Source of the DNA: a virus
Lineage: Duplodnaviria; Heunggongvirae; Uroviricota; Caudoviricetes
Reading direction: 5' to 3' (one strand)
IMG/VR virus record: IMGVR_UViG_2526164634_000034
Location: 1-38,867 of that record
Length of the DNA stretch: 38,867 bases
Shown here: in pieces, positions 15,615 through 21,424 of the stretch
How the letters are laid out: each line of letters begins with the position of its first letter
Numbering within the stretch: the stretch's first letter is position 1
The notes under the pieces: model-generated
The model's input: the letters and a program-made list of their open reading frames with translations, nothing else
The model's database searches: none
Told to the model about the DNA's origin: nothing
Position numbers and translations under genes: made by a program

Positions 15615-17027
15615 TTACCAACCGGAGGATGAGGGAACGTATATTTCTGTTTCTTCGCGGACCAATGCCGGGAAATGCATACACATCATCAGCGCATCAG
15701 CCAGGTTAGGAGATGGAATACCGAGCTTCTGCTTCATTTCGACCTTAGTCATAAGCTCCAGCTTCCCGTTATTATTGAATTTGCGCTGAATCTGAGTCAG
15801 TTCTGCAAACAGCTTCTCCAGCATCTTCTCGCCTATCGCTTCTTTGTCGAAACTCAGCATGTCGTCGGGGTCTGCATACTCACCGTGAACAACCGCCCGA
15901 TATGTCAGATACAGCCTGTCAGCCAGCGCATAATAGAATTGCGCTCGCTTATTGCGGAATACATCGCCAATAGTGCGAACGTTGTCGCCCTGTACTACTT
16001 CATCAGCCCATGCTCCGGCCTGATACGGCGCATCTTCATCGAATGGCGATTCGCTGCCCTTGAACATCGTGGCGGTGATTTTCTTGCCGGAGAACGCTTC
16101 CGTTGTCTGTCTGCGTAGCCCGGCACCAACACCATCACCATCCCACAGGTAGTGGTCAGCGCCGTCTTCAATCGCCAGAGAAGTAGCCCAGTCAGCACCC
16201 TCGTTGATGTCCATCAGCAGACCTTCGGCAATGCGTTTAACTACCGAACCGTGGCGCGATGCGTAACCTTTAGCATCTGGCCCTGTATCTGACGGGTCAT
16301 GTGCAGAAACAACAGCGCCTTTCGCTTTCCATCCGAGTTTCTTGTGCGCATCGGTTGCGGCTTCAAGCCATTCACGTTTGATGATTGCCATATCACTTGC
16401 GCTTACCGGCTCACCAAGCCAGATGTGACGATACAGTGTCGGGTTTCTGCGTTTACACTCTTCCATCTCCAGACGGAGAACTTCAGGAAAGTGCGGGTTG
16501 TCGGTGTAGTTCACCGTCAGCAGACAAATATCATCAGGAGGGTTTACGACGAATCGCTGATAGGTATCGTCGAGGATGTTTTTCGGGTTAAAGCTCACCC
16601 ATATTTCGGAAAACGGCTTGCGGATTGTTGGGATCAGGATATCCCACGATTCCTTTGTTACCGCTTCCGCTTCTTCCACCCAGCAGATATCAATGCCTTC
16701 GAGCGATTTAATCTTCGTCGGGTTGTTTTTGATGCCGTAGAACATGAACTCAGCATTCGTTCCGAGATGACGAATCATGGAACGCTGAATTTCAAACTCA
16801 GCCGAATACCCTTCACGCTCGATGGTATCTTCAAGCAACCGGATTACCGAATCGCTGATACTGTTTTGCAGTTCACGAGCGCAGAGTATGCGCACAGGCT
16901 GCCGACGCGCCGCTTCAACAAGCAGCCTCGCAATTGCCCATGACTTACCGCTACCTCGACCGCCTTTGGCGACTTTGTAGCGATGCGCCTCAATGAACGG
17001 TTCAAAGATAGGATTAATCGAGGTCAT
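15615..17027 (-). CDS. Terminase large subunit
   Basis: 470 aa (Sf6 gp2 size) with Walker A-like KVAKGGRGSGKS near the N-terminus; stop overlaps the portal start. Confidence 0.9.
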   Translation of the reverse strand: MTSINPIFEPFIEAHRYKVAKGGRGSGKSWAIARLLVEAARRQPVRILCARELQNSISDSVIRLLEDTIEREGYSAEFEIQRSMIRHLGTNAEFMFYGIKNNPTKIKSLEGIDICWVEEAEAVTKESWDILIPTIRKPFSEIWVSFNPKNILDDTYQRFVVNPPDDICLLTVNYTDNPHFPEVLRLEMEECKRRNPTLYRHIWLGEPVSASDMAIIKREWLEAATDAHKKLGWKAKGAVVSAHDPSDTGPDAKGYASRHGSVVKRIAEGLLMDINEGADWATSLAIEDGADHYLWDGDGVGAGLRRQTTEAFSGKKITATMFKGSESPFDEDAPYQAGAWADEVVQGDNVRTIGDVFRNKRAQFYYALADRLYLTYRAVVHGEYADPDDMLSFDKEAIGEKMLEKLFAELTQIQRKFNNNGKLELMTKVEMKQKLGIPSPNLADALMMCMHFPALVREETEIYVPSSSGW

Positions 17028-17449
17028 TTTCCGAATAGAGTGCTCATCGGTGATGTTTCAATCTGAATTGCGCCGCCGTCCTTACCGACAAGCTCGTTAG
17101 TTACCTTGTCGCCATACTTACGGGGATTCATTCGGGCCAGCGCCCATTTGCGGGTATCAACGCGAAGTCTTGCCTTTGCCACCTCAGCAGCATCTGGAAT
17201 CGCAGTGTCAGCAATTTCGAATATCTCTTCGAAAATAGAATCAGCTCGCGCCTCAGTTGCCTTCGCGTACTTGTCTCTAAAGTCGTCATGCTCTGACAGC
17301 CAGCGAAATACAGTAGCCTTTGCTGGCATGCCGGGGCGCTTGCAAACCTTAACCAGACTTTCCCCGGAGGCAAGCAGCGCACAGATATCATCAGCCACCT
17401 CCGGCAGGTAATCCGAAGGGCGACCGACATTCTTTTTCTCAGTCGCCAT
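17024..17449 (-). CDS. Terminase small subunit (Sf6 gp1-like)
   Basis: 141 aa immediately upstream of and overlapping the large terminase. Confidence 0.8.
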   Translation of the reverse strand: MATEKKNVGRPSDYLPEVADDICALLASGESLVKVCKRPGMPAKATVFRWLSEHDDFRDKYAKATEARADSIFEEIFEIADTAIPDAAEVAKARLRVDTRKWALARMNPRKYGDKVTNELVGKDGGAIQIETSPMSTLFGK

Positions 17450-17528
17450 ATTGATTATTTCCCTTCTGCTTGCTTATCCCATTCATCGCGGAATTTGGAT
17501 GGGTTGTCGAAACCTTGAGTTGCCATGT

Positions 17529-17771
17529 TTATGCTCCGGTAGTGAACAGGTCTAACACTTCCTTCGATTTACGCACCGCTTCGATAGTGCGGGTCGTGAT
17601 ATCTGAATTAGCGCCACCTGACTGGAAGTGAATTTTAAATAGCTCAAGCTTCAGCTCGTCAGTGCCAATGAACTGAAATGCTTCTTCTGCGGCTGCGTTC
17701 TGGTTCATGACCAGTTTGTAAATCTCTAACTGGAATTTCTGTTCTTCAGTCATGGGAATAATCTCTGCCAT
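17529..17771 (-). CDS. Hypothetical 80-aa protein
   Basis: ORF with plausible spacing upstream of the packaging genes; no recognisable motif. Confidence 0.4.
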   Translation of the reverse strand: MAEIIPMTEEQKFQLEIYKLVMNQNAAAEEAFQFIGTDELKLELFKIHFQSGGANSDITTRTIEAVRKSKEVLDLFTTGA

Positions 17772-18027
17772 TGTTGGCTCCGTTTATCCGTTAAAAGGGA
17801 TATCAGTTAAGTTATCCCGTGCAGGGTATAAGCCATTGTCGAGACCACTCATTGAATGGCCTCTGCAATAACCGATGTCTTTCCATCAGTCCGCCACCAC
17901 AAAGAATCTTTTTTGCCATAAGGCTGGAGGTTCATCTTTCAGTGGCTGCCAGTGTTATTTCCCCACTTACTGGCTTGGGTTGTTTCGCTGTACTGCCGTA
18001 ATGCAAAAACTGGATTAACCTGCGAAA

Positions 18028-18558
18028 TCACACCATTCCGGGCAAATACATTTGCACTTCATTTGCCGCTCTCTCACGTGCAACATGAAGCAATCTTTTT
18101 CGCCCACCAACGCCCCACTTAGCCATTTGGCTTGCGCACTGGCTTATCGCTTTGGTTTCAGTATTGATGATGTGATCGATTCTATTCAGACGGGACATTG
18201 CGCCAACGCCGAGACGGACAACCGTTTTGAAAACTTCATAAACTTCGATTTCAAATTCCGGCTTAATCCATGCTGCATATCTGATTGCCAGAAGTTCAAC
18301 ACCCCACACACCTGGTTCTGCACCACCTTTGATTATTTTAAGTGGCTGAATTTGTTCCAAAGTGCTTTTTTGCACTTTGGCCTCCAGTGCTTTTATGAAG
18401 CGTTTTATCTGCGCGCTACGCAAAAACTGGCTTGGGCGCTGTTGCTCTGTAGCCTCTCCATTTGCAACTGCTGCTGCATGGAGATCGTTTAAGTTGTAGC
18501 GTCCATCCTCATCAACACGAACGGACACACCATTGACAATAACTGTTGGGTACTTCAT
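18028..18558 (-). CDS. KilA-N domain-like protein
   Basis: 176 aa; the N-terminal half has a KilA-N-like pattern (VIVNGVSVRVDEDGRYNLNDLH ... GVWGVELLAIRYAAWIKPEFEIEV). Confidence 0.5.
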   Translation of the reverse strand: MKYPTVIVNGVSVRVDEDGRYNLNDLHAAAVANGEATEQQRPSQFLRSAQIKRFIKALEAKVQKSTLEQIQPLKIIKGGAEPGVWGVELLAIRYAAWIKPEFEIEVYEVFKTVVRLGVGAMSRLNRIDHIINTETKAISQCASQMAKWGVGGRKRLLHVARERAANEVQMYLPGMV

Positions 18559-18705
18559 CAGTAATTACCTTTTAGTGATGAACCTTGTCACACAGGATTC
18601 CGGCCCACAGAAAGGTACCGATCACCAAACCGGCATCCTCAAGGGTCATCCTGAAAGGTTCTGTGTTCATAAGTCGCGCGTGTGAAGCGCGTTTACTGCG
18701 GACAT

Positions 18706-18728
18706 AAAAAAGCCCCGCATCGCGAGGC
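18706..18728 (-). terminator. Rho-independent terminator after the lysis cassette
   Basis: On the minus strand GCCUCGC-GAU-GCGGGGC (one G-U pair) followed by UUUUUUAU, about 35 nt downstream of the Rz stop. Confidence 0.5.
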
Positions 18729-18760
18729 TCATTAAATGGACTTTGTGATTTGCAAAAAAA

Positions 18761-19198
18761 TTATTTCAGGCACTGAGCCCTGATGTACTCCTGCAGGTAG
18801 TTAACCTGCGCGGTTATCCTGTCTATTCCACTTCGGAGACGGTAATAATTGAGTTCAGCATCTGCTGTAAGTCTTGGGCTTTCTCCATCGCCCATGCTGC
18901 TGGCTCCGGTCGTTGACTTTGCACAGGTGGCGGCGACTTGCAGGCGCTTACGACCAGCAGAAACATCAGCACGGAGACTTTCGATAGTCGCGTTAGCATC
19001 AGCAAGCTCCTTTGTGTATCTGGCGTCGAGTTCTGCTACATCACGTTGACGCTTCTGCATGTCAGCGATGATGGATGCGGCCTTATCGCGCTGTTCTTTG
19101 TAGGCGATGGCGTTATCACGGTAATGATTGACCGCCCACGACAGGCAGACGATGATGCAGATAACCAGAGCGGAGATAATCGCGGTTACTCTGCTCAT
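18761..19198 (-). CDS. Rz: Rz i-spanin
   Basis: 145 aa with N-terminal membrane anchor and coiled-coil periplasmic domain; follows the endolysin gene. Confidence 0.9.
18823..19005 (-). CDS. Rz1: Rz1 o-spanin lipoprotein, embedded in Rz in the +1 frame
   Basis: 60 aa with lipobox (LLVVSAC) and a proline-rich mature region; lambda-like embedded arrangement. Confidence 0.85.
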
Positions 19199-19671
19199 AC
19201 CTCAATCTCTCTGACCGTTCCGCCTGCTTCTTTGAATTTTGCAATCAGGCTGTCAGCCTTATGCTCGAACTGACCATAACCAGCACCCGGCAGTGAAGCC
19301 CAGATATTGCTGCAACGGTCAATTGCCTGACGAATATCACCGCGATCAATCATCGGTAAAGCGCCACGCTCTTTAATCTGCTGCAATGCCACAGCGTCCT
19401 GGCTTTTCGGAGAGAAATCTTTCAGGCCAAGCTGCTTACGATAGGCATCCCACCAACGGGAAAGAAGCTGATAACGTCCGGCAGCTGTTGATTTAAGTTT
19501 CGGGTTTAGCGTGACAAGTTTGCGAGGATGATCGGAGTAATCAGTGAATAGCTCTCCGCCAACAATGACGTCATAACCATGATTTCTGGTTTTCTGACGT
19601 CCATTATCAGTTCCCTCTGACCACGCCAGCATATCGAGGAACGCCTTACGTTGATTATTGATTTCCACCAT
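19195..19671 (-). CDS. R: Endolysin (lytic transglycosylase), lambda R
   Basis: 158 aa, [39 protein letters not shown]...; near-identical to recalled lambda R. Confidence 0.95.
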
Positions 19672-19978
19672 CTTCTACTCCGGCTTTTTTAGCAGCGAAG
19701 CGTTTGATAAGCGAACCAATCGAGTCAGTACCGATGTAGCCGATGAACACGCTCGTTATATAAGCGAGATTGCTACTTAGTCCGGCGAAGTCGAGAAGGT
19801 CACGAATGAACCAGGCGATAATGGCGCACATCGTTGCGTCGATTACTGTTTTTGTAAACGCACCGCCATTATACCTGCCGCGAAGGTACGCCATTGCAAA
19901 CGCAAGGATTGCCCCGATGCCTTGTTCCTTTGCCGCGAGAATGGCGGCTAACAGGTCATGTTTTTCTGGCATCTTCAT
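19655..19978 (-). CDS. S: Holin, lambda S (S107/S105 dual start)
   Basis: 107 aa, [39 protein letters not shown]...; matches recalled lambda S including the MKM dual-start motif. Confidence 0.95.
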
Positions 19979-20530
19979 GTCTTACCCCCAGAAGGGGATC
20001 TGTTCAAATTAGGAATTATGGATATGGTCGCTTGAACAAATCCGGGTTACGGTTGATTTGTAACGGGTTTGTTCGTGACCGCATTCATGAGCAAATCTGG
20101 CGTGGATTGCGCCAACAATACATGCCGCTCATATCACGAAGCCCAGCCATTGATGCTGGGTTTTCTTTTTTAAAGCGCACTAGACAACCGTATCCACAGA
20201 GTGTCAGCAATGAGTTGGTTAGGTCTAGTTCTTGGTGGAAGTACGCTTTAAAAAATGGGCTGAGGGTTGTAGCCCAAAATACTTAGGGAATGGTAAGGAT
20301 GAACAACGGTTTTGCTCTGGGTGGATTTGGCTGTGGTGGCCGGCGCTGATCTCCGGCTTGTATACAGGCACCTTGTTCTTCCGAAGCTCTCCTGCGCGCA
20401 TCAGCCTGCGCATTCACCACACCGGAAAGAGCACTCAGTTGTACCGGCCAGTTGTGCCACTAAGAAATGCTTTCGCAGACCGTTAAGCTCTTTGCCAGTT
20501 CTTTAATGCTCTTACCTGTTGTGCAGATAT

Positions 20531-20590
20531 AAAAAATCCCGAAACCGTTGTGCAGGCTCTAACTATTACCTGCGAACTGTTTCGGGATTG
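20531..20590 (-). terminator. tR' terminator
   Basis: Minus-strand hairpin CCCGAAACAG...GGTTTCGGG followed by TTTTTTAT. Confidence 0.8.
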
Positions 20591-20722
20591 CATTTTGCAG
20601 ACCTCTCAGCCTGCGATGGTTGGAGTTCCAGACGATACGTCGAAGTGACCAACTAGGCGGAATCGGTAGTAAGCGCCGCCTCTTTTCATCTCACTACCAC
20701 AACGAGCGAATTAACCCATTGT
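20531..20722 (-). ncRNA. Lambda-type 6S RNA (pR' to tR' leader transcript)
   Basis: The sequence between the pR' -10 and the tR' hairpin matches the recalled lambda 6S region; about 192 nt. Confidence 0.65.
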
Positions 20723-20760
20723 TGGGTCAAATTTACCCAACTTTATTCAAAAAGTCAATA
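20722..20760 (-). promoter_or_regulatory. Late promoter pR' with overlapping qut site
   Basis: Minus strand: -35 TTGACT (20753..20758), 17-bp spacer, -10 TAAATT (20730..20735); matches recalled lambda pR'. Confidence 0.8.
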
Positions 20761-20800
20761 TCATGCCGTTAATATGTTGCCATCCGTGGCAATTATGCTG

Positions 20801-21424
20801 CTAACGTGTGACTGCATTCAAAATGTTGTCTGCGATTGACTCTTCCTTGTGGCATTGCACCACCAGAGCGTCATACAGCGGCTTAACAGTGCGTGACCAG
20901 GTGGGTTGGGTAAGGTTTGGGATTAGCATCGTTACAGCGCGATATGCGGCGCTTGCTGGCATCCTTGAATAGCCGACGCCTTTGCATCTTCCGCATTCTT
21001 TCTCAACAACTCTCCCCCACAGCTCTGTTTTTGATATATCAACCGCACGGCCTGTACCGTGGCAATCTCTACATCTTGCGCCCGGCGTCGCGGCACTACG
21101 GCAATAATCCGCATAAGCGAATGTTGCGAGCACTTGCAGTACCTTTGCCTTAGTATTTCCTTCAAGCTTTGCAATGCCACGGTATTTCCCCGATACCTTG
21201 TGTGCAAATTGCATCAGATAGTTGATAGCCTTTTGTTTGTCGTTCTGGCTGAGTTCATGCTTACCGCAGAATGCAGCCATTCCGAATCCAGCTTGTGATT
21301 GCGCCATCCCCATAGCAGCCATCACATCAGTACCTGAAAGAGAGTCAGAAGCCGTAGCCCGTGGTGAGTCGCTCATCATCGGGCTTTTTGGCGAATGAAA
21401 TTTAGCTACGCTTTCGAGTCTCAC
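20801..21424 (-). CDS. Q: Late antiterminator Q
   Basis: 207 aa, [31 protein letters not shown]...; near-identical to recalled lambda Q. Confidence 0.95.

Follow-up and report, generated by a model that had tools for sequence, protein, structure and literature searches.

A KilA-N gene, a DUF2560 gene and a conserved non-coding block between the lysis and terminase genes of a P22-like prophage

We analysed the whole 38,867-nucleotide (nt) stretch of the viral record IMGVR_UViG_2526164634_000034 (hereafter the window), a P22-like (Lederbergvirus-type) prophage that lies reversed, with its late operon on the minus strand. Between the lysis gene Rz and the small terminase gene (terS), at positions 17529-18558, this operon carries two open reading frames (ORFs), which encode a KilA-N protein of 176 amino acids (aa) and a DUF2560 protein of 80 aa; in the 256-bp gap between them lies a conserved non-coding core block of 126 nt (Table 1). 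An earlier reading, made from the sequence alone (the sequence-only reading), had placed both ORFs here and had described the interval as an accessory region, perhaps a cargo locus, at the junction of a lambda-type lysis module and an Sf6-type terminase module. The two ORFs, their accessory setting and the junction itself are all borne out: the terminase downstream matches Pfam Sf6_terminase, and RefSeq labels on a near-identical Escherichia coli locus read lambda-family holin, GH24 lysozyme and lysis protein. The whole 1.4-kb locus was found in 54 complete E. coli genomes at ~98-99% identity, the RefSeq names of the two genes in E. coli are 'KilA-N domain-containing protein' and 'DUF2560 family protein', and many prophages of E. 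coli and Salmonella carry near-identical copies of both.

Both genes belong to known families. The 176-aa protein matched the Pfam family KilA-N (PF04383) with 64.8 bits against a gathering cut-off of 23.8 (E 7.3e-18), over residues 9-113 and profile positions 6-104 of 107, and matched phrog_129 at 1.6e-60, which confirms the KilA-N call of the sequence-only reading. The profile search that this reading had proposed for KilA-N and any C-terminal domain was thus answered for the former, and no Pfam domain was found in the C-terminal part at E <= 0.1. No ANT/KilAC, AntA or P22_AR_N/C domain was detected in the protein (Pfam, E <= 1), an NCBIfam search gave no relevant match, and sequence searches against solved structures returned marginal matches only, among them one to the MarR-family protein TcaR (profile search of Protein Data Bank sequences, E 9e-4). 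We detected 458 homologues, a KilA-N protein cluster at 99% identity holds 614 member sequences, and the protein is conserved at full length in Salmonella, Escherichia, Klebsiella, Enterobacter, Citrobacter, Serratia, Dickeya, Pectobacterium and Plesiomonas. The allele in the window is 91-95% identical to genes of the Salmonella phages SE1, ST104, MG40 and ST64B; in ST64B, which is not P22-like, the same allele again follows holin, endolysin and Rz and precedes the packaging genes. Homology to the SE1/ST104-type module begins at a hairpin just after Rz and extends into the gap.

The 80-aa protein matched Pfam DUF2560 (PF10834) with 147.4 bits (gathering score 25; E 1.3e-43) over residues 5-76, spanning profile positions 1-72 of 72. 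By its identity of 96-99% to P22 Orf80, BTP1 Orf80 (BTP1_063), Sf6 gp67 and HK620 HkbM, it is the orthologue of these proteins; a second DUF2560 allele class, at 42% identity, is carried by ST64T, SE1 and ST104. Homology searches detected 89 relatives, and an exhaustive profile search among 1.84 billion proteins returned 66 cluster representatives, nearly all of them stand-alone proteins of 75-90 aa and none an informative fusion. The protein is acidic (net charge about -5, counted from the sequence) and is modelled by AlphaFold2 (AF2) as four helices, with a mean predicted local distance difference test (pLDDT) score of 79; a literature search for DUF2560 returned irrelevant mentions only.

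Codon comparisons across homologous loci gave ratios of non-synonymous to synonymous divergence (dN/dS) of 0.05-0.11 for the KilA-N gene (dS up to 0.52) and 0.02-0.23 for the DUF2560 gene (dS up to 0.74). Together with the hundreds of homologues, this purifying selection identifies both as genuine genes rather than chance ORFs.

We collected 125 loci from IMG/VR and GenBank by the block that they share downstream of the KilA-N gene. Among 97 block-bearing contigs with long enough flanks, the KilA-N allele of the window lies upstream of the block in 13%, and a P22-type DUF2560 gene lies downstream in ~48%. In 83 IMG/VR contigs we then used Pfam to classify whatever gene directly precedes the block. 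This position, the post-Rz slot, was held by Phage_pRha proteins in 36 contigs (43%), 29 of them with an ORF11CD3 domain, and by KilA-N proteins in 17 (20%); MUG113/T5orf172 proteins occupied it in 8 contigs and Tad2-like proteins in 4, the occupant had no Pfam match in 12, and in the remaining 6 the block followed Rz directly. Phage Louie, too, has a Tad2-like gene in this slot; it is annotated 'anti-CRISPR' and matches Pfam Tad2-like (Thoeris anti-defence 2) at 9.4e-27. The suggestion of a cargo locus therefore holds for the KilA-N gene, which is exchangeable at this site, and not for the 80-aa ORF: the P22-type DUF2560 allele occurs upstream of P22-type as well as Sf6-type small terminases and so does not co-vary with the packaging module. 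DUF2560 belongs to the lineage, in which it recurs, and is not cargo of the junction. According to published work, orf80 is dispensable in P22, where a derivative with a CamR cassette replacing orf25, pid and orf80 is viable. In HK97, HK544, mEpX2 and HK446, the first 27-28 DUF2560 codons persist alone, at 93-100% identity, near the right genome end and downstream of the block; this stub may be a scar left by recombination or a junction sequence that these genomes share.

The KilA-N domain is followed by a C-terminal tail (residues ~116-176) that, across 26 diverse homologues, is as conserved as the domain itself and carries the motif S..CA..M..WG.GGRK..L....Q..LPG; AF2 predicts it, at low confidence, as a hairpin of two helices at about residues 120-171. 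HkbK of phage HK620 combines KilA-N with the Pfam domain ORF11CD3, and P22 Rha combines Phage_pRha with the same domain. The window protein aligned with HkbK from end to end, tail included (E 6e-17), and within this significant alignment its tail pairs with the ORF11CD3 segment of HkbK. Moreover, a local profile built from the tails of 13 slot proteins matched all 26 family members at residues ~138-175 and in a single register, with weak scores of 1-9 bits. These alignments suggest that the tail is ORF11CD3-like. All three domains, KilA-N, pRha and ORF11CD3, are members of the 'Bro network', whose domains are swapped between proteins (PMC10111431), and to judge by their domains, the post-Rz slot of P22-like phages is a site of interchangeable Bro-network proteins with a common tail, which are probably functional analogues of the uncharacterised Rha.

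Both window genes are co-oriented with S-R-Rz and with terS and the large terminase gene (terL). A scan with a sigma-70-like consensus detected nothing promoter-like either in the stretch from Rz to the KilA-N start or in the gap before DUF2560, and promoter-like matches across the region occurred at chance level (5 found, 4.8 expected). Thirty nt downstream of the Rz stop codon, inside the late operon and at the upstream edge of the KilA-N module, lies an intrinsic-terminator-like hairpin. It is the only strong terminator-like site on the minus strand in the region (18730-18710 in the scan) and stands upstream and not downstream of the KilA-N gene. Phages SE1 and UPF_BP1 as well as prophages of E. 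coli have kept it along with the KilA-N module. In lambdoid phages, Q-modified polymerase reads through such terminators and other transcription stops; by analogy, we infer that read-through of the post-Rz hairpin in the window is Q-dependent.

Expression of the equivalent genes could be followed in a BTP1 lysogen, for which RNA sequencing data from 17 conditions are available (supplement of PMC7067206). There rha has a median of 10 transcripts per million (TPM) and correlates with S, R and Rz (r 0.94-0.95), and orf80 has a median of 19 TPM and correlates with terS and terL (r 0.91). The lysogenically expressed genes pid (median 149 TPM, maximum 1110) and cI (median 162 TPM) stand much higher, pid ~10-fold above rha and orf80, and neither of the latter was flagged as highly expressed in lysogeny (PMC7067206). 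This late-type expression of rha and orf80 argues against prophage-expressed cargo and, by analogy, supports with moderate confidence the view that both window genes would behave as late lytic genes rather than as lysogenic-conversion cargo.

The block in the gap is the most constrained feature of the region, above either gene. Its mean divergence from the window is 1.8% over 115 distinct loci; in the adjacent DUF2560 gene, third codon positions differ by 8.2% and first and second positions by 2.1%. No frame of the block on either strand shows a coding signature, with synonymous changes making up 19-37% of the total. We found the block at >= 90% identity in 163 GenBank phage records, including P22, Sf6, HK620, BTP1, ST64T and epsilon34 as well as HK97/HK022-like siphoviruses (HK544 100%, HK022 96%), and in the phages inspected the lysis end of the genome lies on one side of it and the packaging end on the other. 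We saw it joined to at least four different sequences upstream and five downstream; between P22-like podoviruses and HK97/HK022-like siphoviruses it stays ~98% identical, although the flanking genes have been swapped. No second copy was found within the window.

A search of Rfam matched part of the block and the sequence next to it to the Proteo-phage-1 motif (RF03044) with 23.0 bits, below the gathering score of 42 (E 0.5 on 4 kb, 0.04 on 321 nt). The most invariant part of the block (46 nt), AAGCCAGUAAGUG...AAAUAACACUGGCAGCC, matches the most conserved stretches of the motif, and both elements lie in late-operon intergenic DNA in sense orientation; the block differs in lacking the motif's second hairpin and in its place downstream of the lysis genes, genuine members being located between NinG/NinB and holin or terminase genes. 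We gathered such genuine loci (L129-L247) by sequence pattern, one of them checked with Rfam, and in 40 diverse viral contigs found them preceded by NinG (22 loci) or NinB (12 loci) and followed by holins and terminases. This is the position at which lambdoid phages carry Q and pR', and no Q-type antiterminator was among the families listed for 150 ORFs upstream of the genuine motif; this would point to a function in the elongation, antitermination or processing of late transcripts. Genuine Proteo-phage-1 may thus be a late-operon leader or antitermination element. A full-text literature search for Proteo-phage-1 returned no match.

The gap as a whole folds more stably than shuffled sequences (minimum free energy z = -3.75), but the 5' hairpin of the block, read from the sequence, is not kept in the UPF_BP1 variant, and structural support is weak despite this score. 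For a possible GCCAGU/ACUGGC pairing, a pattern used to gather relatives from metagenomes proved too loose and gave chance matches. A single compensatory difference separates the window type (CCAGU/ACUGG) from the genuine motif (CCGGU/ACCGG) and is only suggestive; thirteen loci have a mismatching ACCGG opposite CCAGU. The block may act in cis on the late transcript, be bound by a protein or serve as a 'boundary sequence' in recombination, and we propose only tentatively, as one possibility among these, that it is a cis-acting nucleic-acid element of lambdoid late operons and a divergent relative of Proteo-phage-1. In a weaker variant of this proposal, the Rha or KilA-N proteins with ORF11CD3 that are encoded just upstream might act on it.

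Several short ORFs surround the two genes. Between the post-Rz hairpin and the KilA-N gene, a 32-aa ORF is the remnant of a 54-aa ORF of UPF_BP1 (phrog_16173), whose annotated form reads through the hairpin; in the window a 4-nt deletion takes out the UPF_BP1 start, and each of the three substitutions seen in a comparison of four sequences is non-synonymous (3/3), so that the ORF is probably not a functional gene here. The segment between the block and the DUF2560 start, its proximal leader, holds two predicted hairpins, the DUF2560 ribosome-binding site and short ORFs, and diverges by 3.4% over 70 loci. One of these ORFs, of 22 aa, resembles P22 'orf25' when compared with its translation. Another, of 35 aa, starts in the block and has its tail in the proximal leader; we rejected it as a gene, finding no synonymous excess in any frame, no Shine-Dalgarno sequence and no PHROG match. 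The plus-strand ORFs of 47 and 60 aa over the block were likewise rejected, as no frame shows a synonymous excess. In SE1 and ST64T a short deletion joins the 35-aa ORF in frame to DUF2560, creating 'Orf-118', and P0122 of Salmonella phage SF6 (118 aa) is a fusion of the same kind; such fusions occur in both DUF2560 allele classes.

Downstream of DUF2560, a 23-aa ORF abuts the terS start and takes the place of hkbN, gp68 and orf59c in HK620, Sf6 and P22, respectively. It has no PHROG match. A second allele, MSAEGFNNPSKFRDEWDSSVKSK, shows synonymous differences in a conserved core, and the two alleles were found in 33 loci, always immediately upstream of the start of terS and with three terS types. 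Judging from this pattern, the ORF is likely to be a real micro-protein or a translational-coupling leader. At the other end of the late operon, the leader between Q and the holin gene reads like the lambda region of pR' (TTGACT-17-TAAATT), 6S RNA and tR', to which it looks nearly identical, and this fits the 'lambda-type' label. The terminator scan did not pick up its long hairpin of tR' type, which ends in ATTTTTTAT close to position 20535.

Table 1. Features of the locus and its surroundings, with related features of other phages
Feature	Sequence	Coordinates	Strand	Basis or detail
Q	window	20801-21424	minus	ORF list, Pfam/PHROG
Leader between Q and holin	window	19979-20800	minus	
Holin	window	19655-19978	minus	ORF list, Pfam/PHROG
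Lysozyme	window	19195-19671	minus	ORF list, Pfam/PHROG
Rz	window	18761-19198	minus	Pfam Phage_lysis, E 4.5e-36
Terminator-like hairpin	window	18703-18730	minus	GAGCCTCGCGATGCGGGGCTT and T run; 9-bp stem with 6 GC pairs, then TTTTTAT
Homology to SE1/ST104-type module	window	17824-18728		
32-aa ORF, probable remnant	window	18572-18670	minus	PHROG 1.4e-22, profile positions 23-54 of 63
KilA-N gene (176 aa)	window	18028-18558	minus	ATG start; Pfam KilA-N, phrog_129
Gap between KilA-N and DUF2560 genes	window	17772-18027		
Sub-threshold Proteo-phage-1 match	window	17944-18015		Rfam RF03044
Conserved non-coding block	window	17874-17999	minus	
35-aa ORF, rejected as gene	window	17812-17919	minus	
DUF2560 proximal leader	window	17772-17873	minus	
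22-aa ORF, orf25-like	window	17784-17852	minus	
DUF2560 gene (80 aa)	window	17529-17771	minus	ATG start; Pfam DUF2560
23-aa ORF	window	17455-17526	minus	MATQGFDNPSKFRDEWDKQAEGK
Small terminase, Sf6-type	window	17024-17449	minus	Downstream boundary; Pfam Sf6_terminase, E 2.2e-44; phrog_1482, 1.4e-66
Large terminase	window	15615-17027	minus	ORF list, Pfam/PHROG
Block copy	P22 (L004)	about 1668-1800		
Block copy	BTP1 (L368)	39249-39374		
Block copy	HK022 (L370)	1801-1926		
Orf-118	SE1 (L007)	2387-2743		
Tad2-like slot gene	Louie (L003)	639-1109		
Genuine Proteo-phage-1	L076	3154-3233	minus	79.3 bits (Rfam)

Combining these results, we consider it probable that the locus is an accessory stretch of the late operon, with two late-transcribed and dispensable genes of known families, one of which encodes a DNA-binding protein of the Bro network. 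Under this model, both genes would be transcribed with the late genes after Q-dependent antitermination, and both would be dispensable for basic phage growth. The KilA-N protein, which shares its slot and two-part layout with P22 Rha and HK620 HkbK, would on that account be one allele of a position-specific late accessory function. Its N-terminal domain would most likely bind DNA, its tail could mediate self-association or contact with a partner, and the protein might act late in the lytic cycle on the DNA of the host, a co-resident prophage or a satellite, and not in the lysogen. DUF2560/Orf80, in turn, would be a small protein, acidic and made of four helices, whose gene repeatedly stands just before the terminase genes in this lineage. 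We hold the molecular role of the KilA-N protein with low confidence: its DNA binding, and any activity as a regulator or anti-repressor such as the sequence-only reading raised, we infer only from the domain family.

Several observations weigh against this model. DNA binding by KilA-N domains has itself mostly been inferred (Iyer et al. 2002, cited in PMC8585504), and the AF2 model of the window protein, made from a shallow alignment, is poor (pLDDT 46.7). For the tail, the Pfam profile ORF11CD3 (PF10549) gave no match at E <= 0.1 with either the whole protein or its C-terminal 66 aa, and a profile alignment (hhalign) with P22 Rha was not significant. The promoter scan used a crude consensus, which weak or activator-dependent promoters would escape. 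Furthermore, the BTP1 slot gene is Rha and not KilA-N, so that the RNA sequencing data cover the orf80 orthologue and a slot analogue only. Finally, the Tad2-like genes of phage Louie and of 4 of the 83 contigs share the slot.

These Tad2-like genes keep open a different, though unlikely, explanation, in which the KilA-N protein is a counter-defence or anti-satellite factor and the post-Rz slot an anti-defence hotspot; late in infection the protein would neutralise an immune system of the host or manipulate a satellite or a rival prophage. The slot exchanges its alleles at a high rate, as arms-race loci typically do, and Bro-network proteins include anti-repressors such as P22 Ant. Against this, the KilA-N protein has no similarity to known anti-defence proteins, and 53 of the 83 slot occupants share a DNA-binding-domain architecture, unlike anti-defence folds.

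For DUF2560, perhaps together with the 23-aa ORF, a function as a DNA-packaging accessory working with the small terminase could be envisaged: the gene lies immediately upstream of terS in P22, Sf6, HK620, BTP1 and the window, expression of orf80 in BTP1 correlates best with terS and terL, and the 23-aa ORF invariably abuts the terS start. The dispensability of orf80 in P22 and the absence of co-variation with terminase type weaken this idea, which we regard as improbable.

Slightly less probable still, and hardly to be expected here, is that the genes are morons expressed from the prophage for lysogenic conversion, with the KilA-N protein acting in abortive infection or superinfection exclusion as BstA does. 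BstA of the P22-like phage BTP1 is a defence protein with a KilA-N-like N-terminal domain (PMC8585504), P22 and BTP1 have a true moron, pid, in the corresponding region (PMC3573128), and the KilA-N gene shows the patchy presence at one site that marks morons; DUF2560 is variable too (~48%) but is the commonest occupant of its site. The KilA-N protein, however, is not detectably similar to BstA (BLASTP E 2.6; hhalign probability 0.3), is shorter (176 against 307 aa) and lacks the BstA C-terminal domain, and a PADLOC scan of four ORFs gave no match at E <= 1; we therefore rejected a defence role. The gene is also co-oriented with the late operon, in contrast to the divergent pid, the crude scan found neither an own promoter nor a downstream terminator for either gene, the terminator-like hairpin lies upstream of the KilA-N gene, and rha and orf80 in BTP1 are expressed like lytic genes, unlike pid or cI. 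It is thus unlikely that the two genes are cargo of the moron kind, expressed from the prophage.

That the ORFs are decaying, functionless hitch-hikers carried by recombination at the module junction, as the dispensability of orf80 in P22 and the high mosaicism of the region might suggest, is very improbable, because the strong purifying selection on both genes excludes pure junk, the KilA-N protein is conserved at full length across many genera of Enterobacterales, and both ORFs are intact in most matched genomes.

The locus thus presents an ordinary picture: two real, already catalogued phage genes in a known accessory stretch of P22-like late operons, both annotated in RefSeq and with named counterparts among the ORFs of P22, Sf6 and HK620. 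What our analysis adds is a clarification, namely that the genes of the post-Rz slot would be late lytic genes and probably functional analogues of Rha, and an unannotated non-coding block common to the model phages P22, HK620, Sf6 and HK022, for which experimental tools exist.

Compared with known systems, the KilA-N gene most resembles hkbK of HK620 and rha of P22 and BTP1, which likewise sit in the slot that directly follows Rz/Rz1 and precedes the conserved block and Orf80, and whose products likewise consist of a DNA-binding domain at the N-terminus and, at the C-terminus, a tail of ~55 aa ending in ...Q..(I/L)PG(L/M). HkbK differs in its low identity (26%) to the window protein, and Rha in having an N-terminal domain unrelated to KilA-N; the allele in the window is instead of the SE1/ST104/ST64B type. 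The DUF2560 gene corresponds in length and in position upstream of the terminase genes to P22 orf80, Sf6 gp67 and HK620 hkbM, but is followed by the 23-aa ORF instead of orf59c, gp68 or hkbN, and no pid precedes it. In P22 and BTP1, pid is inserted between the conserved block and orf25 on one side and orf80 on the other, within the same lysis-to-terminase accessory region (PMC3573128), a position which implies that the region accepts accessory inserts; unlike the window genes, pid is transcribed divergently, from a promoter and to a terminator of its own, and reaches high expression in carrier cells and in lysogens (PMC3573128). BstA, finally, shares with the KilA-N protein an N-terminal domain of KilA-N type in a P22-like prophage, but its gene sits next to the repressor and is expressed in lysogeny, and the protein differs in length and in its C-terminal domain.

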